From Chthoniobacterales bacterium (GTDB lineage: Bacteria; Verrucomicrobiota; Verrucomicrobiia; Chthoniobacterales; UBA10450), in assembly GCA_046593335.1 (NCBI GenBank), contig JBKJNW010000042.1:439-64438 (forward strand): a DNA stretch of 64,000 nt. Reading direction: 5' to 3'. Positions 1-64,000 of the stretch are shown here, one piece after another. The translations under genes were made by a program, and so were the position numbers. Each line of letters opens with the position of its first letter. Within the stretch, counting starts at the first letter, position 1. The notes beneath the pieces are model-generated. The model saw only the letters and a program-made list of their open reading frames with translations, searched no databases and was not told the origin of the DNA.

Positions 1-1
1 C

Positions 2-1306
2 GATGCCACCCTGAGCGCACTCGCCCTCGTCTCGCAGGGCATCGCGCTCAGTCTGCAACGGCGGGAGGGCGACCAGGAACGCGCGCGATTGTTAGGCGAA
101 GCCCAGATGGCGCGGGATGCGGCGGAGATGGCGAACCGGGCGAAGGATGAATTCATCGCCACGGTCTCGCACGAGCTGCGCACGCCCCTGAACGCGATTC
201 TCGGCTGGGCCCGCCTGCTCGAGACCGGTGACCTGACGAAGGACGAGATCGCGGAAGCCTCCAACGTGATCGAGCGCAATGCGCGCGCCCAGTCGCAGTT
301 GATCGAGGACTTGCTCGATGTCTCGCGCATCGTCTCGGGCAAACTGCGGCTCGATTTGCGCACGATCGATTTGCCGGAAGTGGTGCGAGCGGCGGTCAGG
401 ATTATCGAGCCGACTGCAACGGCGAAATCGATCAAGGTTCAATGCGTGCTCGATCCGCGAGCCGGCCCGATCTCGGGGGATGCGGAGCGGTTGCAGCAGA
501 TCGTGTGGAATCTCGTTTCCAACGCGGTCAAGTTCACCCCCAAAGGCGGCAAGGTGCAGGTGGGATTGAAGCGTGCCAATTCCCACGTGGAGCTGACGGT
601 GAGTGATAACGGGATGGGCATTCCAACGGACTTTTTACCGCATATTTTTGAGCGCTTCACCCAGGCGGAAACCTCGAGCACCCGCTCCCACACCGGGCTC
701 GGGCTCGGGCTCGGGATCACGCGGCATCTGATCGAGCTGCAGGGCGGCGCGATCTACGCCTTCAGCGACGGGCCCGGGACGGGCGCGACATTTTGCGTCC
801 ATCTGCCGATCCTGATCCTGCATGAGCGCGGCGAGAATCCGGAGGCGGTCCATCCCAGGGTGCCATCCGATAATCAAATCGACCTCTGTGCGGAACTCGC
901 CGGAGTCCGGATCGTAGCGGTGGATGACGACCCGGACGCGAGAAAGTTGCTCCAGACCGTGCTGACTCGCTGCCACGCCGAGGTCACGGTAGTGGCGAAC
1001 GCAGCGGAAGCGCTCGCCGCGGTCAAAGCGCTGCGACCGGATGTCCTCCTGAGCGATATCGAGATGCCTAACGAGAGCGGCTACGATCTGATCCGGCAGG
1101 TGCGGGCTTTATCGCTGGAGGAAGGCGGAGGCACGCCGGCCGCAGCCCTGACCGCCTACGCCCGGGCCGCGGATCGGACCCAGGCGTTACGAGCCGGTTT
1201 CCAGATGCATGTCCCGAAGCCGGTCGAGCCGAGCGAACTGATCGCGGTCATCGCCAACCTGGCCGCGCGCGGCGGGGCGAGCGCGGCTCCGGTCCCGCGC
1301 GCCTAA
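2..1306 (+). CDS. hybrid sensor histidine kinase / response regulator (5' end upstream of window)
   Basis: Frame is open from the window edge. HisKA H-box FIATVSHELRTPLNAILGW, HATPase_c boxes (DNGMGIP, GLGLGLGI), then a receiver domain (RIVAVDDDPD..DVLLSDIEMP..HVPKPV). Stop TAA at 1304-1306. Confidence 0.9.
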   Translation, partial: DATLSALALVSQGIALSLQRREGDQERARLLGEAQMARDAAEMANRAKDEFIATVSHELRTPLNAILGWARLLETGDLTKDEIAEASNVIERNARAQSQLIEDLLDVSRIVSGKLRLDLRTIDLPEVVRAAVRIIEPTATAKSIKVQCVLDPRAGPISGDAERLQQIVWNLVSNAVKFTPKGGKVQVGLKRANSHVELTVSDNGMGIPTDFLPHIFERFTQAETSSTRSHTGLGLGLGITRHLIELQGGAIYAFSDGPGTGATFCVHLPILILHERGENPEAVHPRVPSDNQIDLCAELAGVRIVAVDDDPDARKLLQTVLTRCHAEVTVVANAAEALAAVKALRPDVLLSDIEMPNESGYDLIRQVRALSLEEGGGTPAAALTAYARAADRTQALRAGFQMHVPKPVEPSELIAVIANLAARGGASAAPVPRA

Positions 1307-2637
1307 CGAGGCCCAGAGCTGAGAGCGAGGCGCGCTTTTTCGAAGACTTCCTCGATGTCGCGCTGGTCGCGCTCGTTCTTGGCCGCGGCCACCCCGTCGT
1401 CGCGGATGGCGCGGGCGTGCCCGAGGAGGACCTCGCGATCTTCCGCCTTCGGCAATTCGGTCGCGACCCGCGCCAGCATGTCGAGCAGGCGGGCGACGAC
1501 GCCGACACTGCTCCGGCCGTATTGTCGGATCTGGTTGAGCGCGGCGGCGGCGATACCGGCGTAGTCGGTCACGTTGGTGACGAGACGGAGGTGATTTTCC
1601 TCGTCGTAATGGAGGGCCGAGGGGATCTGGCGCCGGCCCACTTTGATGAGCGCGACCCCGAGCCATTCGATGCAGCTCATGGCAGTAAACGGGTCGTTGA
1701 TTCCGGGCGACAAAGCGCGCACCGCCACTTCCACCAGTTGGTCGATCGCGTACTCGATGTCCTGGTGAGGCGTGCGATGCCAGCCGAAAAAGAAGGTGTC
1801 GGAACATTTCTCTGCGAATTCCGGGGTGATCTTGTCGGCCGGCCAGGCCAACGCGATGGCCGCTTCCTCGGCAATGAAATCGCCCGGCCGCCGGCACAAT
1901 TGAATGATCATGCCTTCGCGCGCGGCGAGCTCGAGCAGGCTCTCCTCGTCGATCGCCTGGATGAAACCGCTCTTCTGCGCGTCGATCGGTTTTGCTTCTG
2001 CGGCAAATGCTCTCGGGAGCTGGGCGTCGATATGGCTTTTGCGCTCGCGCGGGCCGTCGCCGAGCGGGTCGGGATAAAGCCGGTCGACCCGGAACTGCAA
2101 TTCTTCCGCGACCCGGCCGACGAGGTTCTCGGCCAGGATCGAGTTCGGCACGTGGTGGATGAAGAAAATCAAAAAGCCGACGGAAGCGACCGCAAAGAGA
2201 ATGCCGGAGGTGACGGAAAGAAAAGGCACGAAACTGGTCGCATCGGTTCCACGAATCGTGCGCAGGATGAGGAGGCTGTAGAGAAAGGTGGAAACGAAAA
2301 CGCCGAGGACGACCTGGGTCGCGCGATCGTTCATGAAGTTGCGCAAAAGGCGCGGACCAAATTGCGACGAAGCGAGAGAGAGAGTCACGATCGTGATCGA
2401 AAAGACGACGCCGGCGACGGTGATGGTCGAGCCCGCGATGGTGGAGAGAACGCTGCGCGCCCCTTCCGGTCCGCCGGCCCAGAGCCAGCCGGCGGCGCGG
2501 GCCCACTTGGCGTTCACCAGGGTGTCGACATGAACGGTGAGGAAGGAGAGCCCGGTCGCGAGGATCGACATGATCGTGGGGATGAACCAGTAGCTGCTGG
2601 AAAGGTTCTCCCACGTGGTGCTGAAAAAAGTCTTCAT
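1303..2637 (-). CDS. DUF2254-family predicted membrane protein
   Basis: 444-aa ORF. N-terminal multi-TM region (WFIPTIMSILATGLSFL.., ITVAGVVFSITIVTLSLASSQFGPRLLRNFM) recognised by eye as DUF2254. Stop TAG overlaps the convergent kinase stop. Confidence 0.75.
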   Translation of the reverse strand: MKTFFSTTWENLSSSYWFIPTIMSILATGLSFLTVHVDTLVNAKWARAAGWLWAGGPEGARSVLSTIAGSTITVAGVVFSITIVTLSLASSQFGPRLLRNFMNDRATQVVLGVFVSTFLYSLLILRTIRGTDATSFVPFLSVTSGILFAVASVGFLIFFIHHVPNSILAENLVGRVAEELQFRVDRLYPDPLGDGPRERKSHIDAQLPRAFAAEAKPIDAQKSGFIQAIDEESLLELAAREGMIIQLCRRPGDFIAEEAAIALAWPADKITPEFAEKCSDTFFFGWHRTPHQDIEYAIDQLVEVAVRALSPGINDPFTAMSCIEWLGVALIKVGRRQIPSALHYDEENHLRLVTNVTDYAGIAAAALNQIRQYGRSSVGVVARLLDMLARVATELPKAEDREVLLGHARAIRDDGVAAAKNERDQRDIEEVFEKARLALSSGPR

Positions 2638-2722
2638 CGATCGGGAGAATGTAGACGCTTCGCAGGCCCGAAGCGCGGGAGAAAATGGCGCGGGTAAAAA
2701 AGCTCGCGCGGGGCCAGCGCCC

Positions 2723-3754
2723 CTAACGAATCAAGACATGCACCCCGGGCAGCACTTTTTGCCCGAAATCGAGCGCGTCCCAATTCGCCAGCCGAATGCA
2801 GCCGTGGCTCGTGCTGCGCCCGATCGTTTCCGGCGCTTCCGTGCCGTGGATCCCGCTCCCTTTGTGACTCAGCTCCATCCAGACGATCCCGACCGGGTTG
2901 TTCGGGCCGGACGGGAGTTGATAGGATTCGTCGCTCCGCTTCCCGCGCTGCAACATCTCCTGGTCCCAGCGAAAGGTCGGCATCCAGGCGAACCCTTTGA
3001 TGAACCATTCGCCGACCGGCGCGGGGAGCGATTTCGAGCCCGGCGTGATCGGATAACTCCCGACCAGTTTTCCATCCTGCTTTAACTCCATGATTTTGGC
3101 CGCGATATCGACCTCGGCGGAAAATTGCTCGTTAGGCGCCTTTTCCTTTTCCGTCTTCAGCTTGTTCGCCTTCTCGGCTTCCTCGGTTTTCGTTTTCAGG
3201 TCGATTACGGCCTGGAGCTCGAAGGGCGTGGCCACGTTCGGGACCTGCACTTCATCGCCCGCCTTCGCTTTGTCCCAATCGTATCCGGGATTGAGCTGGA
3301 GCAGGAACTCGCGCCGGCAATGAAATTTCTCCGCCACCAGCTCGAGCAGATTTTCGTAAGGGAGACGGTCGGCCTTGGCTTGTCCCGGATGATCCTTCGG
3401 GAGCGGGCCGATGAATTTTTCGTCCTCGGGGGTGATACGATAGGCGATCTGGACCGGCCTGGATTGGTCGAGCGGGAGGTCGAACTCCGCCGGGGCTTTC
3501 GCGCCTTGCTCCGGCGCGTTCTTGCCCTGCGCCTGCTGGTAACGGGCCAAAGCCTTGCCCATGAACTCGCCCCATTTCCCATCGATCACACCCGGCTTGA
3601 AGGCCGAGCCGTCGAGAAAGAGCTGGGCGCGGAGGATCTGCTCGTTAAGGGAAGGAGCGGGGGAAGGCGAGGCGGCTGACAAAGTCCCGGCGAGCCCGAG
3701 AAAAATGCCGGCGGACCGGGGTACGACGCGCAAGAACCAAAGGCGTAGAATCAT
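2723..3754 (-). CDS. L,D-transpeptidase (YkuD domain), secreted
   Basis: Signal-peptide-like N-terminus. C-terminal YkuD catalytic motif HGTEAPETIGRSTSHGCIRL. Confidence 0.85.
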   Translation of the reverse strand: MILRLWFLRVVPRSAGIFLGLAGTLSAASPSPAPSLNEQILRAQLFLDGSAFKPGVIDGKWGEFMGKALARYQQAQGKNAPEQGAKAPAEFDLPLDQSRPVQIAYRITPEDEKFIGPLPKDHPGQAKADRLPYENLLELVAEKFHCRREFLLQLNPGYDWDKAKAGDEVQVPNVATPFELQAVIDLKTKTEEAEKANKLKTEKEKAPNEQFSAEVDIAAKIMELKQDGKLVGSYPITPGSKSLPAPVGEWFIKGFAWMPTFRWDQEMLQRGKRSDESYQLPSGPNNPVGIVWMELSHKGSGIHGTEAPETIGRSTSHGCIRLANWDALDFGQKVLPGVHVLIR

Positions 3755-3909: not shown

Positions 3910-4395
3910 ATGGAACTCGAAACACTTAAAGACCTCTACATTCACGAACTAAAAGACCTCTACAGCGCGGAAAACCAGATTATCAAAGCGCTCCCCAAAA
4001 TGGCGAAAGCAGCGAGCAGCCCGAAGCTGACCGCCGGCTTCCAGAAGCATCTCGACGAAACCAAGGAACACGCCGTCCGCTTGGAGAAGATTCTGAAAAG
4101 CCACGATGAAACGACGCGCGGCCCGAAATGCAAGGGCATGGAAGGCCTGCTCAAGGAAGGCGCGGAGATGATCGAGGAGGATGCGGATGAGGACGTGCGC
4201 GACGCCGGCCTGATTTCCGCAGCCCAGCGGGTCGAGCATTACGAGATGGCGGGATACGGCTGCGCCCGCACTTACGCCAATTTGTTAGGCGACAAAAATG
4301 GCGCCCGGCTTCTGCAGAAAACCCTCGATGAAGAAGGGGCTACGGACAAAAAGCTGACCAAGCTGGCCGAGAGCATCAACGTCGCGGCTAAGTAA
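3910..4395 (+). CDS. ferritin-like DUF892 protein (YciE/YciF family)
   Basis: MELETLKDLYIHELKDLYSAENQI.. is the typical DUF892 N-terminus. The internal ATG at 3910 was chosen over the longer ORF starting at 3826. Confidence 0.8.
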   Translation: MELETLKDLYIHELKDLYSAENQIIKALPKMAKAASSPKLTAGFQKHLDETKEHAVRLEKILKSHDETTRGPKCKGMEGLLKEGAEMIEEDADEDVRDAGLISAAQRVEHYEMAGYGCARTYANLLGDKNGARLLQKTLDEEGATDKKLTKLAESINVAAK

Positions 4396-4514: not shown

Positions 4515-5588
4515 ATGTTCAGTCTGTTCGTCCTCGCGGCCGCCACGCCGCAGGATCAGCCACAGCAGATCGATTTCAGCCTGGCCGGCGCGCGCGAGCG
4601 TCTCGACAGCTGGCTCGATGGTGCCACCCGGCTTTTGCCAAACATCGCGGTCGCCCTCGTCCTCCTCGCGATTTTCTATGGCCTGGCTGTGTTCGCGCGG
4701 CGGCTCATCGTCGCCCACGCCGCCCGGCGCAACCGGAGCAACCTCGGCAGCGTCCTTGGCGGCTTCGTCAAGGCGGCGATCATGCTGCTCGGATTTCTCC
4801 TCGCGGCTACGATCGTGATTCCTTCGCTGAAACCGGGCGACCTCATCGCCGGTCTCGGCGTCAGTTCGGTCGCGATTGGTTTTGCTTTTAAGGACATCCT
4901 CCAGAACTGGCTCGCCGGACTCCTCATTCTCCTCCGGCAGCCGTTCGAGATTAACGACCAGATCGAGATCGACGGCCATGAAGGGACGGTCGAGCGGATT
5001 GAGACACGCGCCACCATCATCAAGACCTACGACGGTCAACGGATCGTGATTCCCAATAGCCAGATCTACACGAATGCCGTCCTGGTGAAGACCGCGCATG
5101 AGAAACGGCGCAGTCAGTATGACGTCGGGATTGGTTACGGCGACGGGATGGGCGAGGCTTGCAAAGTGATCCGGAACGCCATTGCCGGGGTGGAGGCAGT
5201 GGAGAGCGATCCGGCTCCCGAAGCGCTCCCTTGGGACCTGGCGGCGAGCTGGGTCACGATCCGCGCGCGCTGGTGGACGCTAAGCCACCGGGCCGACGTC
5301 GTGCAGGTGCGGGCGGCGGTCCTACAGGCGATCAAGGAAGGCCTCGACGCCGCCGGGATCGACATGCCGTACGACACCCAGGTGCAATTGTTTCACGACC
5401 AGACGGAAGCTGGCGAAGGCGATCGCAGCCAGCAACGGGAAGGCTGGCCCTCCTCGAAGGAAGGTGCGACCAAACCGCGCTGGAGAGCTGAGGAAGAAGA
5501 GAAAGCGAAACGGCCGGCGAGAGCGGAGGACGAGGCTGGGGCCAATCGCCCTAACGAACGCGAAGCCGGCGCCGCCGCCGATCGTTAG
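4515..5588 (+). CDS. mechanosensitive ion channel (MscS family)
   Basis: TM helices followed by the MscS beta-domain signature LLRQPFEINDQIEIDGHEGTVERIETRATIIKTYDGQRIVIPNS. Charged C-terminal tail. Confidence 0.85.
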   Translation: MFSLFVLAAATPQDQPQQIDFSLAGARERLDSWLDGATRLLPNIAVALVLLAIFYGLAVFARRLIVAHAARRNRSNLGSVLGGFVKAAIMLLGFLLAATIVIPSLKPGDLIAGLGVSSVAIGFAFKDILQNWLAGLLILLRQPFEINDQIEIDGHEGTVERIETRATIIKTYDGQRIVIPNSQIYTNAVLVKTAHEKRRSQYDVGIGYGDGMGEACKVIRNAIAGVEAVESDPAPEALPWDLAASWVTIRARWWTLSHRADVVQVRAAVLQAIKEGLDAAGIDMPYDTQVQLFHDQTEAGEGDRSQQREGWPSSKEGATKPRWRAEEEEKAKRPARAEDEAGANRPNEREAGAAADR

Positions 5589-5731
5589 GCTGGAGCAACT
5601 CGAGATTCTTCTTCCGGTCCCGCGCGCGGGCAAATCCGCGCAGCCGCGGAAGCCAAGGAGGCGTGTTTTGCAGTTGCCATCGGCGGCGCTTCCCGCTCTG
5701 CTCTCCGAATCTGGAGAAAGGGAAACCGCTG

Positions 5732-8272
5732 ATGTCGAAGATCGATCGAAGAAACCCGCCTAACGAAATGCCCGACATGGTCGGGGAAAAGCCACGCAAT
5801 CCGCTGCCGGCGAATTTCAAGCCTTACATTCCGGCGAGCGCAAACATGCGCGAACTGACGATCATCCCGCTCATCGTCGGGACGTTGCTTGGCATCGTCT
5901 TTGGCGCTTCCTCGCTTTACCTCGTGCTCAAGGTCGGGCTCACGGTCAGCGCCTCCATCCCGGTCGCGGTCATCTCGATCACGCTCTTCCGCATCTTCTC
6001 CAAATTCGGGATGCGCGACGCCACCATCCTCGAGAACAACATCGTCCAAACCGCGGGCTCGGCCGGCGAGTCGATCGCCTTCGGTCTCGGCGTGACCATG
6101 CCCGCGATCATGATCCTCGGGTTTGATCTCGAGATCACCCGGGTCATGCTCGTGGCGATTCTGGGCGGATTGTTAGGCATTCTCATGATGATCCCGCTGC
6201 GGCGGGCCTTGATTGTCGATCAGCATGGCATCTTGAAATATCCCGAGGGGACAGCCTGTGCGGAGGTGCTGAAGGCGGCCGCTTCGCGTGAAGGACAGGA
6301 GGAAGTCGGGAAGCCCGCGGACGAAGCAGTCAGCGGCGGCAAGACGATTTTCGCCGGGTTCGGGATCGGGTTCCTTTACCAGGCGGCGATGGGCGCATTC
6401 CGCATGTGGAAGGATACGCCGGAGAAAATTTTCGGCGCGCCCTTCAAGGCCGGATCGATTTCCGCCACGATCGAGCCGGCATTGTTAGGCGTAGGCTACA
6501 TCATCGGGCCGCGGATCGCCTCCATCATGTGCGCGGGCGGCGTCCTCGCTTATCTCGTCCTCATCCCGGCGATCAAGTTTTTCGGCGAAGGTGCAACCGC
6601 CATTCTCGCTCCCGGGACCATCCCGATCAGTCAGATGAGCCCGGACGATATTCGCGGAGCTTACGTACTTTACATCGGCGCCGGGGCCGTCGCGGCGGGC
6701 GGAATTATCAGTTTGTTCCGTTCGCTTCCGACCATCTGGCACGGCTTGAAAGGCGGGCTGAGCGATCTGCGCGGGGGCAAAGCGCAGAGTGCCAACGCCC
6801 CGCGGACCGATCAGGATCTGTCGATGAAGTTCGTCATCGGCGGTTGCATCGCGCTCCTCCTCGTCATGATGGTGGTGCCGCAACTGCATCTGCAGTGGAA
6901 CCTGCTCGGCGCGCTCCTCATCGTCGCGTTCGGTTTCCTCTTCGTCACTGTTTCCTCGCGCCTCACGGGCGAGATCGGTTCGTCTTCGAATCCGATTTCC
7001 GGCATGACGGTGGCGACGCTTCTTCTCACCTGCCTTGTCTTCCTTTTCATCGGCTGGACCGGGCCGAAATATTTTGTGACCGCGCTCTCCATTGGCGGCA
7101 TCGTCTGCATCGCATCCTCCAACGGCGGCACAACCTCGCAGGATCTGAAGACAGGATTTCTCGTCGGCGCGACCCCGCGCTTGCAGCAGATCGCCATCCT
7201 CGCCGGCGCGCTCGCCTCCGCCCTCGTGCTCGGACCGATCCTGCTAAAATTGAACGATGCCTACACGGTTTACGTGCCGCCCACCAGTTTCCAAAAAGTC
7301 GTCGCGGGCGCCACGCCGGCACGGGTGGAGTCGGCCAACCTGCCGGCTTTCAGCGATCAACTAAAGCCGGACACCACTGGTAAATATCGCGTCCTGCACA
7401 ACGAAAAAGGCGGCGTGAATTCGGTCGTCCCCGGTCTCGAAGCCGGTGATTATTTGGTCAACGAAACGGGCGAAGTTGTTTACAAAATGCAGCGCAACTT
7501 CCCCGCCGATCTGCGCGCACCGGCCGACGCCGAGCTCGGGCCGCCGGAAAGAATCAAGGGCGCACAGGCGGCCACAAATCCGGAAAGTTATCGCGCCTGG
7601 CAGCGGATCGATCCGGCGGGCGGACCCGCGCAGCGTTATCTCGTGAACGCGCAGGGTGAGGCGGTTTACCTGGTTGATCCGGGCATCAACGGAACCCATC
7701 ACACCCGGCCGGACGGTTCGACGGTGGAAAAATTCGACGCGCCGAAGGCGACCCTCATGTCTTACATCATCAAGGGCATCCTGAGCCGGAAGTTGCCCTG
7801 GGCGCTGGTGTTGTTAGGCGTGATGATTGCAATCGTGCTCGAGATGAGCGGCATTCCTTCGCTCGCTTTTGCGGTCGGCGTTTATCTCCCGCTCGCTTCT
7901 TCCAGCCCGATCTTTATCGGCGGCATGATTCGCTGGCTGGTCGATCGCTGGTTGCGCAAACAAAAATTCAAGGACCACGACCTCTCGACCGACGAGCTGG
8001 TCGCGGAAGGCGACAAGAGCCCCGGGGTGTTGCTCGCCTCGGGTTACATCGCGGGCGGCGCGCTCGCCGGCATCGTCATCGCTTTCATGGCCGGCGTCCC
8101 GCGCCTGGTCGGTATCCGGCGACAGGTGGAAGAATGGTCGACCGCGTACAATCCGTTTTTCGCCGGGGCGAATGCGGATCTGCTCGCGCTTGTTCCCTTC
8201 GCGGTCCTCTGCGTCATGCTTTACGTAGTCGGGCGCGATCTTCTGCTCGCCGGCCCGAAACGGAAAGCCTAA
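5732..8272 (+). CDS. OPT-family oligopeptide transporter
   Basis: About 846-aa polytopic membrane protein with OPT-like segments (NIVQTAGSAGESIA, GEIGSSSNPISGMTVATLL, GGTTSQDLKTGFLVGATP). ATG at 5732 is preceded by GGAGAAAGGGA. Contains a long soluble insertion around 7260-7740. Confidence 0.8.
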   Translation: MSKIDRRNPPNEMPDMVGEKPRNPLPANFKPYIPASANMRELTIIPLIVGTLLGIVFGASSLYLVLKVGLTVSASIPVAVISITLFRIFSKFGMRDATILENNIVQTAGSAGESIAFGLGVTMPAIMILGFDLEITRVMLVAILGGLLGILMMIPLRRALIVDQHGILKYPEGTACAEVLKAAASREGQEEVGKPADEAVSGGKTIFAGFGIGFLYQAAMGAFRMWKDTPEKIFGAPFKAGSISATIEPALLGVGYIIGPRIASIMCAGGVLAYLVLIPAIKFFGEGATAILAPGTIPISQMSPDDIRGAYVLYIGAGAVAAGGIISLFRSLPTIWHGLKGGLSDLRGGKAQSANAPRTDQDLSMKFVIGGCIALLLVMMVVPQLHLQWNLLGALLIVAFGFLFVTVSSRLTGEIGSSSNPISGMTVATLLLTCLVFLFIGWTGPKYFVTALSIGGIVCIASSNGGTTSQDLKTGFLVGATPRLQQIAILAGALASALVLGPILLKLNDAYTVYVPPTSFQKVVAGATPARVESANLPAFSDQLKPDTTGKYRVLHNEKGGVNSVVPGLEAGDYLVNETGEVVYKMQRNFPADLRAPADAELGPPERIKGAQAATNPESYRAWQRIDPAGGPAQRYLVNAQGEAVYLVDPGINGTHHTRPDGSTVEKFDAPKATLMSYIIKGILSRKLPWALVLLGVMIAIVLEMSGIPSLAFAVGVYLPLASSSPIFIGGMIRWLVDRWLRKQKFKDHDLSTDELVAEGDKSPGVLLASGYIAGGALAGIVIAFMAGVPRLVGIRRQVEEWSTAYNPFFAGANADLLALVPFAVLCVMLYVVGRDLLLAGPKRKA

Positions 8273-8380
8273 CGAACGCGGCACGGTAACTGAGCTGCGA
8301 AGAAGGCGGCGCTGGGGAGAAGTCCCTTCATTCGCTGCTCGCCACGGCTGCGAAACTGCATTTAACATCCCGGCCGCAAG

Positions 8381-19071: not shown

Positions 19072-19089
19072 GATGCGGCCGGCCCCGTC

Positions 19090-33971: not shown

Positions 33972-33973
33972 CG

Positions 33974-54840: not shown

Positions 54841-55344
54841 TTATTGAAAGGAAACCGGCGTGAGCACGACCTGCTCCGCCGGGTAGGAGACGCGCAGCGA
54901 CGCCCCGGTCTGCGGGTTGCGCCACTGCATCGTCTCGCGGGTGTCGTAGCGGACCCGCCGGAGCGGTCGCTCCGTTTGGTTAGGCGAGAAAACGAGACCT
55001 TCGTCGCGCCGATGGTAAACCACCTGGGTCAGCGCGGATGGTTGCAGCCCGGGGTCGTAGGCTGCGCTCGGCGCCGGGCTGGTGTTTTGCGCGAGGACTG
55101 GCGCAGCGGATGGCGGCTCGGAGAAGAAAGCGAGCCAGACGAGGACTAGCGCGGAAGCGGTCGTTAGGCCAAGGCCGAGCGACCACCAGAGACCGGCCCG
55201 CCGCGCCGGGCGGGGAAGAACGCCGGCGGTTGGTGCCGCGTTAGCTTGCGCGAGGTCGGCTTCGATTCGGGCCCGCAGCTCATCCGAGACTGGCGCCGGG
55301 CGCAGCTTCTTCAGCTCGGCTTCGAGTTCGGAAAAATCATTCAT
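54841..55344 (-). CDS. putative single-pass anti-sigma factor
   Basis: 167 aa: short cytoplasmic helix, one TM helix (GLWWSLGLGLTTASALVLVWLAFF), periplasmic tail. Overlaps the ECF sigma stop by 8 nt. Confidence 0.55.
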   Translation of the reverse strand: MNDFSELEAELKKLRPAPVSDELRARIEADLAQANAAPTAGVLPRPARRAGLWWSLGLGLTTASALVLVWLAFFSEPPSAAPVLAQNTSPAPSAAYDPGLQPSALTQVVYHRRDEGLVFSPNQTERPLRRVRYDTRETMQWRNPQTGASLRVSYPAEQVVLTPVSFQ

Positions 55345-55868: not shown

Positions 55869-56735
55869 ATGCAGCTTTTGTCTAACGACGTGAAAACTTT
55901 CTCTTTCGCCGCCGGTGCGCTTTTTCTTTTCTGCAGCGCTTCCCTTTTCGCCGAAGAGGCTGCGAAAGGCGGAAACGCAAAATCCCTCGCCGCGGCGGAA
56001 ACGGCTTTTGCCCAGGAAGCGATTGAGAAAGGAACGCGCGCGGCGTTTCTCCATGTCCTCTCGGACGAAGCCATCGTTTTCGAGCCCGGCCCGACCAATG
56101 CCAAAAAGGCCTGGCAGGCAAAGCCGGAATCGAAGTCGGTCTTGCAATGGCAGCCCGTCCTCGTCGCTGCCTCGACCAGCGGCGACTTCGGTTACACCAC
56201 CGGTCCGTGGAGCTTCAAGAACGACCCGGCGGCGAAGGAAGCGACGGACTACGGGCAGTTAGTCTCCATCTGGCGCTGGGAAAATGGACAGTGGAAATTA
56301 AACTTCGACCTCGGCTCGGAAAATCCCGCTCCGAGCGGGCCGCAGGCGGATTTGCAAATCGTCGACAACCACGCCCCTAACGAATCGGCCGCGGATGCGG
56401 AGCCGGTCATGCGCGCGCACGATTTGCGCTATGCGGCAGATCGAGCCGGGCAGCTCGCCGCCGCGGCGGAAGATAACGTTCGGCTCTATCTCCCGCAGCA
56501 ATTTCCCGTCGTTGGCAGCGCCGACGCCAGCGCCGCGCTGCAAAAAGAAAAGACCCCGGTCAAGTTTGGGGAACCAAAGGGAGGCGACATTTCCTCCGGA
56601 GGCGATCTCGGTTTTGTCTGGGGCGAATACCTCAACGGTCCGGCGACGGAAGCGAGCGGGTATTACCTGCGCATCTGGCGCAAAGACCGGGCGGGCGAGT
56701 GGAAGCTCGCGCTCGACCTCATGCATCCTCGTTAG
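55869..56735 (+). CDS. secreted tandem SnoaL/DUF4440-like (NTF2-fold) protein
   Basis: Signal peptide, then two NTF2-like halves ending ..LVSIWRWENGQWKLNFD and ..YLRIWRKDRAGEWKLALD. Confidence 0.65.
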   Translation: MQLLSNDVKTFSFAAGALFLFCSASLFAEEAAKGGNAKSLAAAETAFAQEAIEKGTRAAFLHVLSDEAIVFEPGPTNAKKAWQAKPESKSVLQWQPVLVAASTSGDFGYTTGPWSFKNDPAAKEATDYGQLVSIWRWENGQWKLNFDLGSENPAPSGPQADLQIVDNHAPNESAADAEPVMRAHDLRYAADRAGQLAAAAEDNVRLYLPQQFPVVGSADASAALQKEKTPVKFGEPKGGDISSGGDLGFVWGEYLNGPATEASGYYLRIWRKDRAGEWKLALDLMHPR

Positions 56736-56747
56736 GCGAGAACGCTC

Positions 56748-57845
56748 TCAGCGCGCGGGCGAAATCGGGCGCAGGACCAGTTCGCCCAGCCACCACGGGT
56801 CGGCCACGCCTTTTCGGTAGGCGGCGAGCGCCTCGGGCGAGGAGTTGAGGTGGAGGTTGCTGTAGCTCTGGTCCTCGTTCTGCCAGCGCTCGTGCCAGTA
56901 GACCGCCGCTTTCACCCGCGGCAGGCGCGTTTTCACGACGCTGAACGCTTCCTCAATCCATTTCGCCTTATTCCCGGAGTGGGGAAATTCCCCAGTCGCC
57001 CATTCCGTGATCATGATCGGCTTCTGCGGATCGAGCCGGCTCAATTCCTGGTAGGGCCAATCGACCAAGGGCCAGAAAGGCGACCACGGTTCATCGGCAA
57101 ATTGCTGGCCGTAAACACTCATCCCGAGCCAGTCGACGTAATTGGAACCGGGATAATAGGCGGGCGCGAAATTCCAAGTGTCCATCGGGAAGGAGTAATT
57201 GTTTGTCTGGAAAAGCCACTGGATGTTGTACGCTCCGCGCGCCCGGACCCGGTCGACGACGTAACGAAAAGCGCGCTTGAAAACCTCCGGCCCGGCCCAC
57301 TCGTTAGGCTTGTCTCCCACCTTTTTGTTCCCGCCGTAGTAAACGCCCGACCAGGGAAACCAGTCGCCGTTCATCTCGTCCCCAAAGGAAACAATCATCG
57401 GTTGTCCAAAAGCCCGGGCCCGGTCGGCCCAGTCATCGATGTACCGATTCCAGGTGCCGGCGAGAATGGCCTCGAGGCTGAAACGGTCCGGTCCTTTCTT
57501 TTGTTCGTAAGGCCGATCCCAGGGCGACCAGAAAACGAGCGGGAGCGAGCCATGCCGCCAGATCACCTCCAGGTTGGCGGTCGGGAAATTTTGTTCACCC
57601 CAGTAGCTGGAGGAGGCGATGATGGCCTGGTGTTTCCCCACCATGGCCTCGAAGTTTTCGATCGTCTCCAGTTCGACCGCATCCTCGGCTTCGCCGAAAT
57701 CGATATAGGCCCCGGTGTAGGCGCCTTTCTCCGGCAGAACCACCTGCATCGGCACCTTGAACTCTCGCCGCGTCTGCTCCGGCGCCGGTTTCCGGCAACC
57801 GACCAGCGCCAGCAGGAGAGTAAGGGTGAAAAGCAGGTGCTTCAC
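56748..57845 (-). CDS. GH26-like glycoside hydrolase lipoprotein
   Basis: Lipobox LLALVGC. FGDEMNGDWFPWSG and ITEWAT are consistent with GH26/clan GH-A acid-base and nucleophile regions. GTG start. Confidence 0.65.
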   Translation of the reverse strand: MKHLLFTLTLLLALVGCRKPAPEQTRREFKVPMQVVLPEKGAYTGAYIDFGEAEDAVELETIENFEAMVGKHQAIIASSSYWGEQNFPTANLEVIWRHGSLPLVFWSPWDRPYEQKKGPDRFSLEAILAGTWNRYIDDWADRARAFGQPMIVSFGDEMNGDWFPWSGVYYGGNKKVGDKPNEWAGPEVFKRAFRYVVDRVRARGAYNIQWLFQTNNYSFPMDTWNFAPAYYPGSNYVDWLGMSVYGQQFADEPWSPFWPLVDWPYQELSRLDPQKPIMITEWATGEFPHSGNKAKWIEEAFSVVKTRLPRVKAAVYWHERWQNEDQSYSNLHLNSSPEALAAYRKGVADPWWLGELVLRPISPAR

Positions 57846-57848: not shown

Positions 57849-60800
57849 TTAGACCCGGGCCGGGACCGAAGCGGTCCGTTCAAGTTTACCCCAGCCGACC
57901 CAGGCGCCCTTGAGCGCGCGGAGGATGGCTTTCCAAATCACATAACTCAGGAGCGGGCGATAAATCAGTCGCATCGGGATGATACGCCAGGCGTGCAGGA
58001 CCGGTTCGCGCTCGATAATGCAGGCGAGGGTGGCGAGAATCACATCCATCGCGAGAAAGATGACGACGAAAGGAAGGATGGCGCGCCAGGCGCCGAAAGG
58101 CAGGGAGGCGATTAAGAAGAAATCGACCATCGGGGTGAGGGCGACGAGCAGGATCTGGAAAAACCAGACACTCGGCAGGCTGAACCAGCCGAGGGCGCGG
58201 TAACGCCAGTTGAAAACTTTTTCGCGATGTTTCCAGAGACATTGCAACGTGCCGTAGGCCCAGCGGAAACGTTGCCGGGCGAGTGTGCGCACGGTTTCCG
58301 GCGCTTCCGTCCAGGCGATCGCGTCCGGGGTGTAAACGATCCGGTTTCGCTCTTTGTGCAGAGTGAGGGTGAGATCGGTATCCTCCGCCAGGGTATCGAG
58401 GCTGAGCCCGCTGGCGCGCGCGATGGCGGAGCGGCGCAGGGCGCTGATCGCGCCGGGGACGACCGTGATGCAGTTCCAGCGATCGTAGGCGCGCCGGTCA
58501 AGATTGAAGCCGCAGGTGTATTCCAGCGCCTGGCAGCGAGCGATGAAGCTGCGCAGGTTCCCCACCTTGGCGTGGCCGGAGACCGCGACCACTTCCTCGT
58601 CGGCCAGCGGCCTAACGAGCAGGCGCAGGGTGTCGCGTTGCAGGTGGGTATCGGCGTCGAGAAAAACCACCACTTCATGCGCGAGCAAGGAAAGCCCGTA
58701 CTGCAATGCGACCGCCTTGCCCCGGTTCCGTTGCCTAACGAGTCGGACGCGGGAGTCTGTCTGCGCGATCTTTTCCACTTCGGCCGCGGTGCCATCCTTC
58801 GAGCCATCATCCACCACCAGCACTTCGAGCGGGCCGGAATGATCGTTGGCCAGGACCGCGCGCAGGGTCGCGGCGATGACCTTTTCCTCGTTGTACGCCG
58901 CAATTAAAACACTGATCGGTGGAGCGAAATCCTCCGCCAGCGGAGCCGTCCGGCGGAAGCGGGCCGCGAGGATAATTACGACCAAAGTGCGCAGGACGAT
59001 GAGCGCGGTCGCGACGATCATGAAAGCCCAGAGGAATTCCTCGATCGCATGAAAGACGCGAAAGCCGGCGCTGCTCACGAAGCGCGGAATCCGTTGCCCC
59101 GCGCCGACCGGCGGCATGACCGCGTCGCGCGTACTTCCGATGAGCGTGCTGAGGGGAACGATGGTGTCCCCTCTGGTGTGGAGCCAATCGATGATCTTCG
59201 GCAGCGCCGCGATTGTCTGCGCGCGATCGCCACCGGCGTCGTGCAGGAGGATGATGCTGCCGTCGCGGCGCTGTTGCTTGATCCGCTGCAGGATGACGTC
59301 GGCCCCCGGCCGGGCCCAATCCTGCGGGTCGATGTTTTCCAGGACGACGAGGTAATTGAGATCGTTCGCGATCTGGAGCGGGGCGAGATCGGCTAACGAC
59401 GACGGGCTGGTGTCGGCATTATAGGGCGGGCGAAAGAGGGTGGTGGAACGGCCGGTAATCGTCTCGAGCAGAAGCTGAGTCGCATTCAACTCCAGGCGGA
59501 TATGTTCCGGCCAGCAGACGGCGAGATTGGGATGGTAATAGGTGTGGTTCCCGATCTCGTGTCCCTCAGCCACGATTCGCCTAACGAGACCGGGATATTG
59601 CTCGGCGTTGACCCCAACGAGAAAGAAAGTCGCGGTGATTCCGTTCGCCTTCAGGATGTCGAGGACTCGCGGCGTCCATTTCGGATCGGGTCCGTCGTCG
59701 AAAGTGAGCGCGACCTGGTGTTCGCCGCCCGCGCCCTGATGATAAAGCGTGGGGAACTCCGGAAATTGCAGATAACTCGCGCTCAGGTAACCATCGGCCC
59801 CGCGCTCGATCTTGCGCGCCCCGTCCGTCCGCGCCTCGTCGACGTTGACGATCTCGCCATCACCGACATCGGTGATGGTGTCGCTGCTCGCGAGTGGTTC
59901 GAGGAATTTTTTCAGCGTCCCGTCCGGCGGCGCGGGCGGAAAGTTGAGCGCATCCCAGATCGCCGGGTCTTCCGTGCCAAGGCGGAAGATGGCCACGCCG
60001 CCCGCTTTTTGTTCGCGGACCGCGTGCAGCTCGTTCAGGAAACTGATCGCATCGAGAAACCAGACGGAGTGTTCCTTCTCCGCATCTTCGTAATAAAAAT
60101 CCGCGCTGTGATCGGGTGGCGCGACCGTGCCGGGCGCGACCTCGGCGTTGCTCGCACGACTCATCGCCTCCGGGAAACTGATCAGCTCGGCCCGGCGCGC
60201 GCCATTCGTCCAGTCGTAGCCATAACTGCCGAGCGCGATGATCCATTGCTCGGGATCGGCGTCCTCGAGCAGGGCGTGGAGCCATGACTCAAACCATTGC
60301 CGCGACGCGAGCGGCCCGGGCGCATCGTCGTCGGAACTTTCATCAAAGAGAAGGGCGACGAAACGATCGACCTGTTCCGACACTTTCTCGAAATCGATGT
60401 AATCGAGATCCTGGCCCGGTTGCACGCAGAGCCAAAGCTGGCGGCCGTCGGCATGAAGACGCTCCGCCATTTTGCCGAGCAGTTTCGTGATGTCGTCCTG
60501 GTAAGCGGGATCGACCTGCTCCCAGTCGATCACGACCCCGGCGGCCTTGGCCTTACGCAGTTGCTCGAGCAGCGTCTGTAAAAAATGCTCCTGCCGCTCC
60601 GGCGGACCGTGCGCGAGATTTTCCACCGCCTCCGGTTGCCAGGTGTCGCCGACCTGATTGGTCAGGAGCGGCATTAAGGCCAGACCCTTGGCCGCGGCCA
60701 GTTTCGGGATCCGGATGTCGGCATCGACCTGCAAATTCCCGAGGCCATCGGAGAGGGCGAACCATTCCGGGCAGACATGGGTGAGCTGGGCCGCGTGCTG

Positions 60801-61275: not shown

Positions 61276-62052
61276 TCAGCCCTCGTCGTTAGGTGCGCCG
61301 GCCTGGACGATCTGGGCGAAGCTGCGCGGATCAAGGCTCGCCCCGCCGACGAGCGCGCCGTCGATATCCGGCTGCTCAAGAAGCTGGCGCGCGTTATCCG
61401 GTTTGACGCTTCCGCCATACTGGATGCGGATCTTTTCCGCGGTCGCTTCATCCGACATCGCGCCCAGCGTTTTGCGAATGAAGGCATGGACTTCCTGGGC
61501 CTGTTCGGTGGTGGCGGTTTTGCCGGTGCCGATGGCCCAGACTGGTTCGTAGGCGATGACGATCTCGTGGAATTCCTTGGCTTCGACGTCGGCCAGGCTG
61601 CCGCGCAACTGGCTGGTGATGACTTTTTCGACCTCACCTTTTTCGCGCTGAGCGAGAGTTTCGCCGACGCAGAGGATGGGGCGCAATTTTTCCTCGAGGG
61701 CCGCGCGCACCTTGCGGTTCACGATCGCGTCCGTCTCGCCAAACATGGCGCGCCGTTCGCTGTGCCCAAGGATGACGTAGCGGACGAAAAGTTCACGCAA
61801 CATGGCGGGGCTGATCTCGCCCGTAAAAGCGCCGCTCCGTTCCCAATGCATGTTCTGCGCGCCGACCTTGATGCTCTGCGTCTGCGTCAGGAGCTCGGTC
61901 ACTTTGGGAATGGCGGTGAAGGGCGGCACGATCACGATCTCGACCGCGTCGAAGTCGCCGATCTCGCGCAGAAAAGTAGTGATGAAGGCCTCCGACTCGC
62001 TCTGAGTCATGTGCATTTTCCAATTCGCGGCGATGATTTTTTTGCTGCGCAT
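61276..62052 (-). CDS. tpiA: triose-phosphate isomerase
   Basis: IAANWKMH, ILGHSERR, AYEPVWAIGTG. Confidence 0.95.
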   Translation of the reverse strand: MRSKKIIAANWKMHMTQSESEAFITTFLREIGDFDAVEIVIVPPFTAIPKVTELLTQTQSIKVGAQNMHWERSGAFTGEISPAMLRELFVRYVILGHSERRAMFGETDAIVNRKVRAALEEKLRPILCVGETLAQREKGEVEKVITSQLRGSLADVEAKEFHEIVIAYEPVWAIGTGKTATTEQAQEVHAFIRKTLGAMSDEATAEKIRIQYGGSVKPDNARQLLEQPDIDGALVGGASLDPRSFAQIVQAGAPNDEG

Positions 62053-62061: not shown

Positions 62062-63273
62062 CTATTTTTCGCTTAACGCCGCGACCCCGGGGAGTTCCTT
62101 GCCTTCAATCAGCTCGAGCGAAGCGCCGCCGCCGGTGGAAATGAAGGTCATCTTATCCGCCAGCCCGGCCTGTTTCACCGCGGTCACGGAATCACCGCCG
62201 CCGATGATGGTGGTGGCGTTCGATTCCGCCATCGCCTCGGCGACCGCTTCCGTGCCGGCGGAGAATTCCCGTATCTCGAAAATGCCGGGCGGCCCGTTCC
62301 AGAGAATGGTTTTAGCGCGCGCGATCTCGCTCTGGAAAAGGGCAATCGTCAAGGGCCCGATATCGACCGCCTGCCAGCCGTCGGGAATATTATAATCCTC
62401 CGAGATGCGACCGCTGTGCCGGGTGGCGGAGCCGGGCTTGATCTCTTCCGCGCCTAACAAGTCGATCGGGAGGAGGAGGCGGACATTTTTTTGTTTCGCG
62501 AGCGCGATCAATTCGCGCGCCAGATCGAGCTTGTCCCGCTCGACCCGACTGCTACCCATGTGAACGCCTTCCGATTCGAGGAAAGTGTTGGCCATGGCGC
62601 CGCAGATCAGGATTGTGTCGGCCTTCTCCATCAGCGCCTTAATCACCCCGATCTTGTCCGAGACCTTGCCGCCGCCGAGGATGACGAGGAACGGCTTCGC
62701 CGGGTGGGCCAGTTCTTCCTGGAGATATTTCAATTCCTTCTCCATCAGGAAACCCATGGCCGCTTGCCTAACGAACTTGGTCACTCCGGCGGTGGAAGCG
62801 TGAGCGCGATGGGCGGCGCCGAAAGCATCGTTGACGTAGAGCCCGTCGCTTAGTTTCGCGAGCGTCTCGGCGAACTTCGGGTCGTTCGCTTCCTCGCCCG
62901 CGTAGAAGCGGACGTTTTCGAGCAATGTGACATCGCCCTCTTTCATCTCGGCCACGATTTTTTCGGCATCGGTGCCGATGCAATCGTGGCTGAAGGCGAC
63001 CGGATGATCGATCAGGTCGTGCAGTGCCAGACCGACGGGCCGGAGCGAATATTTCTCCACCGGCTGGCCTTTCGGCCGGCCGAAGTGCGCCATCAAAATC
63101 GTCTTCGCGCCTTGTTCGCGCAGGTAGTTGATCGTGGGCAGGCTCTCGCGCATCCGGTTGTCGTCGGTGATGACGATTTTGCCGTCGCGTTCTTCGGTCG
63201 GGACGTTGAAATCGACCCGCACGAGGACGCGTTTCCCGCGGACATCGAGGTCGCGAACGGTGAGTTTACTCAT
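62062..63273 (-). CDS. pgk: phosphoglycerate kinase
   Basis: RVDFNVP, MAHFGRPKG, ISTGGGASLE. Confidence 0.95.
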   Translation of the reverse strand: MSKLTVRDLDVRGKRVLVRVDFNVPTEERDGKIVITDDNRMRESLPTINYLREQGAKTILMAHFGRPKGQPVEKYSLRPVGLALHDLIDHPVAFSHDCIGTDAEKIVAEMKEGDVTLLENVRFYAGEEANDPKFAETLAKLSDGLYVNDAFGAAHRAHASTAGVTKFVRQAAMGFLMEKELKYLQEELAHPAKPFLVILGGGKVSDKIGVIKALMEKADTILICGAMANTFLESEGVHMGSSRVERDKLDLARELIALAKQKNVRLLLPIDLLGAEEIKPGSATRHSGRISEDYNIPDGWQAVDIGPLTIALFQSEIARAKTILWNGPPGIFEIREFSAGTEAVAEAMAESNATTIIGGGDSVTAVKQAGLADKMTFISTGGGASLELIEGKELPGVAALSEK

Positions 63274-63680
63274 ATCTCCTGCTCCTGCTCATAATCCCCC
63301 TCCTCCTCCCGAATCATGGCGGGGTGATCCGAAAAGCGGCGGAGCAACCCCATCAGCATGCGAACAATGTGAACCAATCGATCTTTCCCCGCGCTAATTT
63401 GATCATCAGTTGCGAGCCGTCGAACGACCAGCACGTCGAGGCAGGCCGCGCACTCGAGCGCAGAACCGCGCGCGATTTCGAAAAATCGAGCCCGATCCCG
63501 TCCCGAGAACTTGCCATTTCCCTCCGCGATGTTGAGCGGAATGCTGGTCGAGGCCCGGTCGAGCTGATCCTTTGCGGCTGCCTTCGCCGAGATTGAAACA
63601 AGCAATTCTCCGACCCACCCGCAGAGTAGGAGCGACTCCTGGTAAACTTCCAACTTCTCGTGATCGAAAAAGGGTTTCAT
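63270..63680 (-). CDS. four-helix-bundle protein (23S rRNA intervening-sequence / Avd family)
   Basis: LEVYQESL.., IPLNIAEGNGKFSGRDRARFFEIARGSALECAACLDVL are the family hallmarks. Stop overlaps the pgk start (ATGA). Confidence 0.85.
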   Translation of the reverse strand: MKPFFDHEKLEVYQESLLLCGWVGELLVSISAKAAAKDQLDRASTSIPLNIAEGNGKFSGRDRARFFEIARGSALECAACLDVLVVRRLATDDQISAGKDRLVHIVRMLMGLLRRFSDHPAMIREEEGDYEQEQEI

Positions 63681-63718
63681 GGCGAAGGGAGGAGCAGGAT
63701 TATGAGCAAGAGCAGGAG
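63276..63718. repeat. 22-bp inverted repeat pair (one mismatch) bracketing the four-helix-bundle gene
   Basis: CTCCTGCTCCTGCTCATAATCC (63276-63297) against GGATTATGAGCAAGAGCAGGAG (63697-63718). Same family as the hairpin at 28891-28943. Confidence 0.85.
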
Positions 63719-63723
63719 AAGGA

Positions 63724-64000
63724 TTACTTTGAAATCATTTCCAGCATTTCCACGCAACGATTGCTGTAGCCCCATTCGTTGTCGTACCAGCCCACGACCT
63801 TGACGAAGGTTCCCTGCGCCATCGTGAGTCCGCTATCGAAGATGCAGGAGTGCGGGTTACCCACAATGTCCATCGAGACCAACGGCTCGTCGCTGTATTC
63901 GAGCACGCCCTTGTAGCTGGCGTCGGCTGCGGCTTTTTTGAAGGCCGCGTTGATCGCCTCGGCCGTCGTTTCCTTCTCCAGGATGGCGGTGAAATCGGTC
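63724..64000 (-). CDS. gap: glyceraldehyde-3-phosphate dehydrogenase (3' part; 5' end beyond window)
   Basis: The C-terminus ..VKVVGWYDNEWGYSNRCVEMLEMISK is the canonical GAPDH tail. The frame stays open to the window edge. Confidence 0.9.
   Translation of the reverse strand, partial: TDFTAILEKETTAEAINAAFKKAAADASYKGVLEYSDEPLVSMDIVGNPHSCIFDSGLTMAQGTFVKVVGWYDNEWGYSNRCVEMLEMISK

Follow-up and report, generated by a model that had tools for sequence, protein, structure and literature searches.

A hyper-abundant, orientation-independent 9-mer with the population-genomic signature of uptake sequences in a clade of soil Chthoniobacterales

Background

A 2025 survey ascribes uptake sequences to two families of Proteobacteria (bioRxiv 10.1101/2025.10.24.684340), and the accepted explanation of the DNA uptake sequences (DUS) of Neisseriaceae and the uptake signal sequences (USS) of Pasteurellaceae is biased uptake combined with recombination (PMC3630211, PMC2817400, bioRxiv 10.1101/2025.10.24.684340). 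Here we describe a 9-mer, TCGTTAGGC, dispersed along a 64,000-bp stretch of chromosome from a Chthoniobacterales bacterium (contig JBKJNW010000042.1; the whole stretch is called the window below) and in the genomes of its relatives, which behaves in many respects like an element of that kind. DUS are non-palindromic words of 9-12 bp found at ~1/kb in both orientations; their positions are conserved between species and congruent with the phylogeny, another word is used in a related lineage, one-off variants are enriched, and they have a CTG core and a stop codon in one frame that restricts placement (PMC3630211). About half of DUS and USS copies lie in terminators, where inverted pairs are frequent, and the Neisseria receptor of DUS is ComP. 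USS have a 9-bp core at comparable density, with 1,471 copies in H. influenzae, 65% of which are in open reading frames (ORFs), and their reading frames correlate with preferred codons (PMC2817400). USS copies are flanked by AT-rich segments, occupy places where the protein tolerates them and are missing from genes that have no homologues. The USS core sequence is AAGTGCGGT, and its spacing is also more regular than random.

Abundant short words of other kinds are known as well. The highly iterated palindrome HIP1 (the octamer GCGATCGC) of cyanobacteria is hyper-abundant, conserved, quasi-periodic and lineage-restricted, and it is tied to the methyltransferases DmtA and DmtC. Chi sites and the FtsK-orienting polar sequences (KOPS) are short, asymmetric words over-represented in core genomes and are polar; in E. 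coli they occur roughly once per 4-5 kb. The attC sites of integron cassettes follow the consensus GTTRRRY for the core and RYYYAAC for the inverse core (PMC3053210).

Results and discussion

Abundance of the 9-mer in the window

The window (GC content 60.9%) holds 43 exact copies of the motif, 24 on the + strand and 19 on the - strand, where TCGTTAGGC reads GCCTAACGA. The expectation from 100 dinucleotide-preserving shuffles of the window was 0.35 copies, with a maximum of 3, and Markov-1 and Markov-3 models gave ~0.3 and 0.65. TCGTTAGGC ranks first by frequency among both the 8-mers and the 9-mers of the window. Its hexamer core is present at 75 sites (GTTAGG 39, CCTAAC 36), and when these are aligned the information is confined to T-C-G-T-T-A-G-G-C. 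One-mismatch variants are themselves enriched (42 versus 11.5 expected), with changes gathered at the edges (positions 1, 2 and 9) and few within GTTAGG. The commonest are TCGTTAGGG (9 copies), the CpG-deamination product TTGTTAGGC (8 copies versus 0.15 expected) and ACGTTAGGC (4 copies).

Within coding sequence, 36 copies were seen against 0.54 +/- 0.74 (maximum 4 in 1000) in a synonymous-codon shuffle in which all protein sequences and the codon usage of the window are preserved and the rare codons of the motif itself stay available. The hyper-abundance of TCGTTAGGC is thus confirmed, including against the codon-aware null that the original prediction, made from the sequence of the window, had proposed as a check. 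The prediction's figures of about 75 hexamers, 43 exact 9-mers and fewer than one expected were reproduced, and all but two of its core coordinates were right (11809 should be 11799, and 56386 should be 56376). Its GC content of about 63% was too high, and its naming of the commonest non-exact forms is amended by the ranking above.

Conservation and turnover in related genomes

The CysS relatives of the window, by which it was assigned to Chthoniobacterales, Verrucomicrobiota, are all soil or peat metagenome-assembled genomes (MAGs), with Candidatus Udaeobacter among the more distant ones. Our main clade sample consisted of the window and 21 species-level relatives, the latter represented by ~21-kb pieces around cysS. 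TCGTTAGGC was the top word of this sample (373 copies versus 2.3 expected, 163-fold, 0.85/kb) and was present in 22/22 genomes; it was seen in independent MAGs from many studies and in one Logan assembly.

The syntenic part of the clade genomes was aligned to the window (75-84% nucleotide identity). The nine motif positions were 87-97% identical across species, compared with ~75% for the flanks overall, 63-79% for the bases directly adjoining the motif and 45-65% for nearby third-codon positions. The footprint is therefore 9 bp long, covers synonymous positions and lies in flanks conserved slightly below average. Together with the codon-preserving shuffle and the use of both strands and four reading frames, it bears out the earlier proposal of a constraint on DNA and not on protein, one that relatives share and that is visible at synonymous sites of orthologues.

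Most motif sites are common to the main clade. Those that differ are mostly 1-2 substitutions away from the motif in closer relatives and more at greater divergence, and no insertions or indels were found at motif sites among the aligned relatives; copies thus turn over by point mutation. The cysS gene illustrates this. Its invariant KSLGN peptide is spelled AAG-TCG-TTA-GGC-AAT in 21/23 motif-rich genomes, and AAG-TCG-CTC-GGG-AAT is the commonest single spelling elsewhere. Lineage-specific gains of the motif in cysS altered amino acids, e.g., RADEF to PPNEF, and the cysS stop GCC-TAA-CGA of many clade members has decayed to GCG-TAA-CGA or GCC-TGA-CGA in others.

Beyond the main clade, a second motif-rich group (L024, L031, L048 and L070) has the motif mostly at other positions, which argues for continuing accumulation in each lineage. 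Other Chthoniobacterales show ~20-fold enrichment at low density (~0.09/kb) with some positions shared, and the system therefore looks old. A sister clade has, in place of TCGTTAGGC, the dispersed word TTGTCGATCTT at ~1/kb in both orientations (98:96), 60-fold enriched in its own clade and only 3-5-fold elsewhere; the clade tree rests on one protein, and the two words are not obviously related in sequence. The sister-clade word can be written (T)TGTCGATCT(T) and occurs at loci L038, L021, L078 and others. In the other Chthoniobacterales clades no dispersed word reached the ~1/kb level, and TTGTCGATCTT is the only dispersed counterpart found.

Five further candidate words taken from the top k-mers of other clades (AACGTCCAACG, AACGTCGAAC, AAGCTCCAA, AACGCTCAAC and AACGTTCAACG) were rejected as additional dialects, being short tandem heptamer arrays at few loci and not dispersed. 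Such arrays in other Chthoniobacterales have a genome-specific unit (AACGTCC, AACGTCG, AAGCTCC, AACGCTC or AACGTTC) that is shared by unlinked loci of one genome and differs between lineages, often in inverted pairs. Inside cysS they form an in-frame insertion in a variable linker, translated as NVQRPTS... (L032 11033-11067, L044 11058-11078, L079 11038-11058 and L040 11041-11086), and L032 has two more at 3416-3500 and 4508-4535.

Orientation, spacing and occurrence beyond the window

Copies on the + and - strands are interleaved along the 64 kb with no switch point. A metagenome scan for two 9-mer copies 400-430 bp apart gave 120 hits, and 61 of the contigs were of the dispersed type, only one of them overlapping the window. 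In these independent contigs the copies beyond the seed pair, which was on one strand, were split into 31 with the same and 33 with the opposite orientation, a second and independent argument against polarity. The strand skew that the original prediction would have taken to point to a Chi- or KOPS-type function was not seen in either data set. The cysS neighbourhood (21 kb) of relatives does show local imbalance, e.g., 5:19 in L008, made up of one inherited set of sites within a run of genes pointing the same way. The GC skew of the window was too weak to assign a replichore. Relative to transcription, a hand tally on preliminary gene calls gave ~20 sense and ~23 antisense exact copies.

The spacing of the motif is more even than chance would give. 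Three gaps did not exceed 150 bp, versus 11.9 expected (P=0.0005), the largest gap was 2,634 bp versus 4,111 bp expected (P=0.013), so that every 2.7-kb stretch has at least one copy, and the coefficient of variation of the gaps was 0.78 versus 0.98 under random placement.

Nor is the enrichment confined to the window, another outcome that would have spoken against the prediction. The non-syntenic parts of the relatives (69 kb) carry 0.82/kb, as compared with 0.89/kb in the syntenic parts, and the further copies in the 61 dispersed-type soil contigs amount to 0.20/kb, ~40 times the chance level of ~0.005/kb. One non-syntenic segment of 9.3 kb with lower GC (L006 12116-21380, GC 0.56), which encodes two TonB-dependent receptors, has 1 copy versus ~8 expected, as would be the look of foreign or fast-changing DNA; L003 has a comparable segment at 12111-17036. 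The tRNA-Ser is missing at the position of this segment in both genomes. Among viral contigs there were 12 hits, all of them chance pairs, local repeats or attC-like, and no phage had a clade-like density, the single pattern used being too insensitive to reveal avoidance. In 12 kb of one IMG/VR contig (L213, GC 0.68) there are 17 GTTAGG/CCTAAC hexamers, of which 14 share a strand, with only 3 exact 9-mers.

Placement relative to genes, codons and stop codons

The window is an ordinary housekeeping chromosome with 57 supported genes, and 71/75 core sites are in coding sequence or on stop codons. In-gene sites (62/75) use the four stop-free frames: xxG-TTA-GGx (..L-G, or S-L-G when the copy is exact) at 26, CCT-AAC (P-N, then D or E) at 15, CTA-ACG (L-T) at 12 and GTT-AGG (V-R) at 9. 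Another 9/75 are at stop codons and 4/75 are intergenic or at a gene edge. Since one strand of the motif contains TAG and the opposite one TAA, these nine copies end 10/57 genes, six as ..CGT-TAG and four as GCC-TAA-CGA, and one of them ends both genes of a convergent pair. This tally is based on ORFs supported by Pfam or NCBIfam, the initial calls from third-position GC content (GC3) having mis-assigned the gcvT region. Stop usage among the 57 genes is TAG 21, TGA 20 and TAA 16, the motif supplying six of the TAG and four of the TAA. In mechanical ORF lists many spurious ORFs begin or end at motif copies.

The motif also holds 26/68 TTA (38%), 13/50 CTA (26%) and 9/45 AGG (20%) codons of the window. 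The original prediction had described the motif as almost entirely intragenic, dependent on rare codons and laid over the KMSKSLGN peptide of CysS and the DALLGA peptide of IspF. The codons and both peptides are as described, and the intragenic placement stands for the 62 sites in open frames; the nine at stops and the four intergenic or edge sites depart from it, and the role of the motif as a source of stop codons had been passed over.

Comparison with uptake sequences

The window and its relatives display a population-genomic signature of the DUS/USS type: the motif is extremely enriched, has a sharp 9-bp footprint, turns over by point substitution, favours no strand, transcription direction or position, is regularly spaced and clade-specific, is placed where coding allows and is scarce in DNA that looks foreign. 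The density, length and behaviour of the copies are as described for DUS and USS (PMC2817400; PMC3630211; bioRxiv 10.1101/2025.10.24.684340). With DUS the motif has in common its non-palindromic form, both orientations, positions conserved between species in congruence with phylogeny, a different word in a related lineage, enriched one-off variants and a placement restricted by a stop codon; with USS, a 9-bp core and copies in permissive protein positions that are lacking in genes without homologues. The likeness to DUS and USS noted in the original prediction is thereby strengthened. There are differences too. TCGTTAGGC is without the CTG core of DUS and occurs in a different phylum, and nearly all its copies are in coding sequence or stops, as opposed to the half of DUS found in terminators; it also makes heavy use of both its stop codons. 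Its sequence is unrelated to that of USS, and it has no AT-rich flanking segments, the footprint being exactly 9 bp. Sharing neither core, it is therefore a member of neither family by descent; by sequence and phylum it lies outside both, and by behaviour it is an element of that kind.

With moderate confidence, we read TCGTTAGGC as a clade-specific, orientation-independent self-DNA tag, uptake-sequence-like and kept by a transformation-linked drive, because its signatures together match those of DUS and USS. Double-stranded fragments with the 9-mer would be bound by a sequence-specific DNA receptor belonging to a natural-competence apparatus, and conspecific DNA would hence be preferentially taken up and recombined. 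Alleles gaining the motif by point mutation would spread, and alleles losing it would be replaced (molecular drive), so that the motif would build up to ~1/kb where coding permits, i.e., in the frames S-L-G, V-R, P-N-D/E and L-T. A stop codon would be a very efficient slot (..T CGT TAG or, from the opposite strand, GCC TAA CGA); by a rough estimate it is about a hundred times likelier than an internal slot to hold the motif. The uptake bias, the receptor, competence and a driving role of recombination are inferred.

Several observations weigh against this interpretation. To our knowledge natural transformation is unreported for Verrucomicrobiota, and literature searches found none. The 57 window genes include no pilus or competence genes, and a prepilin-signature scan of 1.87 Mb, a sample that is mostly one syntenic region, gave spurious hits only. 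Nearly all copies are in coding sequence or on stops, and close inverted pairs, frequent in DUS and USS, are depleted here. Any other genome-wide sequence-specific drive or selection would give equal signatures. Finally, rare codons are imposed by the motif, in contrast to USS, whose frames go with preferred ones (PMC2817400). In line with the original prediction that no such element had been described, full-text literature searches did not find the motif in a relevant context, nor anything linking Chthoniobacterales or Udaeobacter with uptake sequences or competence.

Alternative explanations

A HIP1-like role comes nearest to accounting for the same data: a sequence-specific protein of the cytoplasm would recognise the 9-mer inside the cell, as suspected for HIP1, and selection or biased repair would maintain the motif at regular intervals, without a role in uptake. 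That protein could be, for instance, an orphan methyltransferase, a factor of the nucleoid or of segregation, an enzyme of repair or gene conversion, or a discriminator of self from non-self. Enrichment, the 9-bp footprint, regular spacing and clade specificity follow equally from it, and the 20-fold low-density enrichment across other Chthoniobacterales fits an old chromosomal function. However, TCGTTAGGC is non-palindromic, unlike HIP1 and most methyltransferase sites, and the unrelated sister-clade motif and near absence in other clades are hard to square with an essential chromosomal role, so we regard this explanation as possible, if rather doubtful. GCGATCGC itself appears in the top k-mer lists here and was rejected as a HIP1-like word, being only 1-2-fold enriched. 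Drive by very-short-patch-type repair is disfavoured because it should deplete a specific one-off neighbour, whereas the common one-offs are all enriched, including TTGTTAGGC. A polar motif of the Chi, KOPS or AIMS (architecture imparting sequence) type, read directionally by RecBCD/AddAB or FtsK and co-oriented with replication, would also be an over-represented, short, non-palindromic word in core genes, and the 5:19 imbalance near cysS could be cited for it. That imbalance goes back to inherited sites in co-oriented genes, the copies are otherwise neutral to strand (24 + and 19 - interleaved over 64 kb; 31:33 beside same-strand seed pairs), and ~160-fold enrichment at ~1/kb is far above the level of Chi or KOPS; such a function is most improbable. 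Raw abundance would be the only thing to suggest that the motif is a side effect of protein or codon composition, a mobile repeat dispersed over the genome or an artefact of assembly, and this is scarcely credible. The synonymous-codon shuffle gave 0.54 copies against 36 observed, and the motif uses four frames, two strands and stop codons. Repetitive extragenic palindromes (REP) and miniature inverted-repeat transposable elements (MITE), with a unit above ~20 bp containing a dyad, an intergenic location and spread by insertion, were ruled out, as conservation does not reach beyond the 9-mer and the aligned codons show substitutions, with no indels, at the sites. That the motif recurs in MAGs assembled independently in many studies, and in a Logan assembly, speaks against an artefact.

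A different kind of site is suggested by the sequence GTTAGGC/GCCTAAC within the motif, on which the original prediction was silent: it fits the attC core GTTRRRY and inverse core RYYYAAC, and is the canonical form of both. We calculate that a random 9-mer has a prior chance of ~0.6% of containing GTTRRRY, which is small and not compelling post hoc. In addition, 49/120 hits of the metagenome scan were genuine integron cassette arrays from soil, on one strand and with long conserved flanks, whose attC sites (about 80-120 bp) run GCCTAAC...TCGTTAGGC with about 80-100 bp in between. An ORF can terminate at the TAA of GCCTAAC, termination of cassette ORFs within the inverse core is common, and four window genes end GCC-TAA-CGA. 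The chromosome might then be seeded with half-sites for an integron integrase or a related tyrosine recombinase, as secondary integration sites or proto-cassette boundaries, a reading we consider very unlikely. In integrons the inverse core is paired at 57-141 bp as an imperfect inverted repeat or hairpin, in same-strand arrays beside intI, whereas the copies here are single, in both orientations and inside housekeeping genes. Across the window and the clade loci, inverse-core/core pairs were not in excess at attC distance (7/161 adjacent CCTAAC..GTTAGG pairs within 150 bp, below random), and neither same-strand arrays nor conservation beyond 9 bp was found there; in the only close pair of the window (5549-5590), no internal dyad is visible when the sequence is read. 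No integrase is among the 57 window genes, breakpoints of synteny or of high-scoring segment pairs between relatives are not at the motif (2/200 within 10 bp versus 4.2 at random), and all nine positions are equally constrained, whereas in attC only GTT/AAC is critical. The window copies are not attC sites. A further reading, which appears unlikely, is an orientation-independent self-identity tag of an uncultured soil lineage abundant worldwide, read by machinery other than the competence pilus: an intracellular nuclease, defence or recombination system might sense tag density so as to distinguish own from foreign DNA, or integron-type half-sites along the whole chromosome might mobilise ordinary genes, the latter version being raised because the motif equals the integron core site and ends 10/57 genes.

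The cassette arrays were found at L135 (1-7505), L186, L200, L120, L127 and L181, with all sites on one strand and 400-1000 bp apart; an attC example from L135 reads GCCTAAC-CAGTCGCCGGAGCC...GGCTCAGCTTTTTTC-GTTAGGC.

Positions of the core sites

All 75 GTTAGG/CCTAAC sites of the window are given here as 9-bp intervals with their strand. Exact copies in the frame xxG TTA GGx are in DsbD-like (10858..10866, +), ABC permease (15139..15147 and 16495..16503, both +), gcvT (26447..26455, -), Cld-like (28327..28335, +), SdpI/DUF1648 (39958..39966, -) and hypothetical genes (44937..44945 and 49120..49128, both +), as well as in cysS over KMSKSLGN, with TCG TTA GGC as S-L-G (30346..30354, -). All eight TTGTTAGGC sites share this frame: in the gene of a hybrid His-kinase/receiver (89..97, +), in DUF892 (4282..4290, +), in the OPT transporter (6170..6178, 6482..6490 and 7811..7819, all +), in an ABC permease (15220..15228, +), in ispF over DALLGA (31532..31540, -) and in pgk (62452..62460, -). 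So do the four ACGTTAGGC sites, which are in the coaC flavoprotein (33546..33554, -), yicC (34680..34688, -), rnhB (41919..41927, +) and a hypothetical gene (44447..44455, +). The frame is completed by TCGTTAGGG in AhpC/TSA (12311..12319, +) and an ABC-2 permease (46241..46249, -), TTGTTAGGT in cysS (30508..30516, -), CGGTTAGGC in a TPR protein (36520..36528, -) and CCGTTAGGC in a repeat protein (51670..51678, -).

The CCT AAC (P-N) frame is used by exact copies in the hybrid His-kinase/receiver (1066..1074, -), the YkuD L,D-transpeptidase (3129..3137, +), the OPT transporter (5758..5766, -), a hypothetical gene (23441..23449, +), yicC (34858..34866, +), the TPR protein (36362..36370, +), the mutY-like gene (38737..38745, +), an ABC ATPase (47744..47752, +), a PDZ protein (53846..53854, +) and a GH26 gene (57301..57309, +). 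Variants in the same frame are TCGTTAGGG in the MscS channel (5549..5557, -), the ArnT-like glycosyltransferase (19391..19399, +) and the DUF4440 gene (56375..56383, -), TGGTTAGGC in a hypothetical gene (54977..54985, +) and TCGTTAGGT in tpiA (61286..61294, +).

In the xxC CTA ACx (L-T) frame, exact copies were located in the DsbD-like gene (10658..10666, -), ABC permease (16022..16030 and 16916..16924, both -), the ArnT-like glycosyltransferase (20580..20588, +), coaB (DFP; 33036..33044, +), the PDZ protein (54120..54128, +) and a hypothetical gene (55161..55169, +). They are joined by TCGTTAGGT in the DsbD-like gene (11798..11806, -) and an ABC ATPase (14410..14418, -), TCGTTAGGA in a GDSL lipase (13716..13724, +), and TCGTTAGGG in a pseudouridine synthase (17618..17626, +) and the PDZ protein (54801..54809, +). 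The nine GTT AGG (V-R) sites are all exact and lie in an SDR gene (12958..12966, -), the mutY-like gene (39329..39337, -), an ABC ATPase (47346..47354, -), a hypothetical gene (48809..48817, +), an MFS transporter (52463..52471, -), the GH18-deacetylase-GT2 (PgaC-like) gene (58610..58618, 58733..58741 and 59579..59587, all -) and pgk (62766..62774, -).

Among the copies at stop codons, the one shared by a convergent pair (1301..1309, -, exact) provides the TAA of the hybrid His-kinase/receiver gene and the TAG of the DUF2254 gene. TAG stops are further supplied by exact copies to the MscS channel (5582..5590, +) and the DUF4440 gene (56729..56737, +), by TCGTTAGGG to the YkuD L,D-transpeptidase (2721..2729, -), by TCGTTAGGA to the ArnT-like glycosyltransferase (19088..19096, -) and by GCGTTAGGC to inositol monophosphatase (31692..31700, -). 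The remaining TAA stops, from exact copies, are those of the OPT transporter (8267..8275, -), gmk (33971..33979, +) and cysS (29785..29793, +), the last copy being also within the overlapping 5' end of a hexapeptide-transferase ORF (L-T). Intergenic or gene-edge sites are exact at 20890..20898 (+) and 40332..40340 (-), TCGTTAGGG at 23813..23821 (-) and CGGTTAGGT at 32445..32453 (-).

Genomic setting and other repeats of the window

The genes of the window include cysS, ispF, coaBC, gmk, yicC, mutY-like, rnhB, HU, gcvT/H, tpiA, pgk, transporters, envelope enzymes and one tRNA-Ser, the latter being the only result of Rfam and tRNA scans of the window; no phage genes were found among the 57. An 1116-aa protein of the window had an exact match in one Logan contig only.

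Tandem arrays with the hexamer unit GAGCAS/CTGCTC or the heptamer unit AAATCCG were found at 28890-28951, 21394-21535, 22653-22825, 11708-11740, 26909-26930 and 63276-63290, some of them inside genes (DsbD-like, gcvT). The first forms a near-perfect hairpin (-53 kcal/mol, z -9) between the stop of the Cld-like gene and the tRNA-Ser, and the second a hairpin from inverted heptamer arrays (z -5.5); both look like terminators made of tandem repeats. A 580-bp intergenic region at 40545-41126, with an AT-rich start, is where synteny with several relatives is broken; it has no Rfam match, and at 40657-40800 a 40-nt unit is repeated in tandem 3.6 times. The gene 50497-51858, which encodes a repeat protein with weak matches to GlxA-like and delta-60 repeats, has ~2.2 tandem copies of a 144-nt unit (51053-51394).

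Conclusions

The motif accounts for the odd codon and stop-codon usage of these MAGs, in which annotators should expect spurious ORF boundaries at its copies, and it offers a cheap marker for binning and for the recognition of foreign DNA. The existence of clades with TCGTTAGGC, with TTGTCGATCTT or with neither provides a handle on the receptor by phylogenetic profiling. If its function is not uptake, TCGTTAGGC would pose a second puzzle of the HIP1 kind, with far better material for comparison, and the half-site version, if true, would bear on the unsolved origin of gene cassettes. If the uptake interpretation is true, this would be a third, unrelated self-DNA tag, in Verrucomicrobiota, and the phenomenon would be phylogenetically broad. 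Candidatus Udaeobacter, also of the Chthoniobacterales, is among the most abundant soil bacteria and barely cultivable; the tag would then imply frequent, species-restricted natural transformation in dominant soil bacteria.

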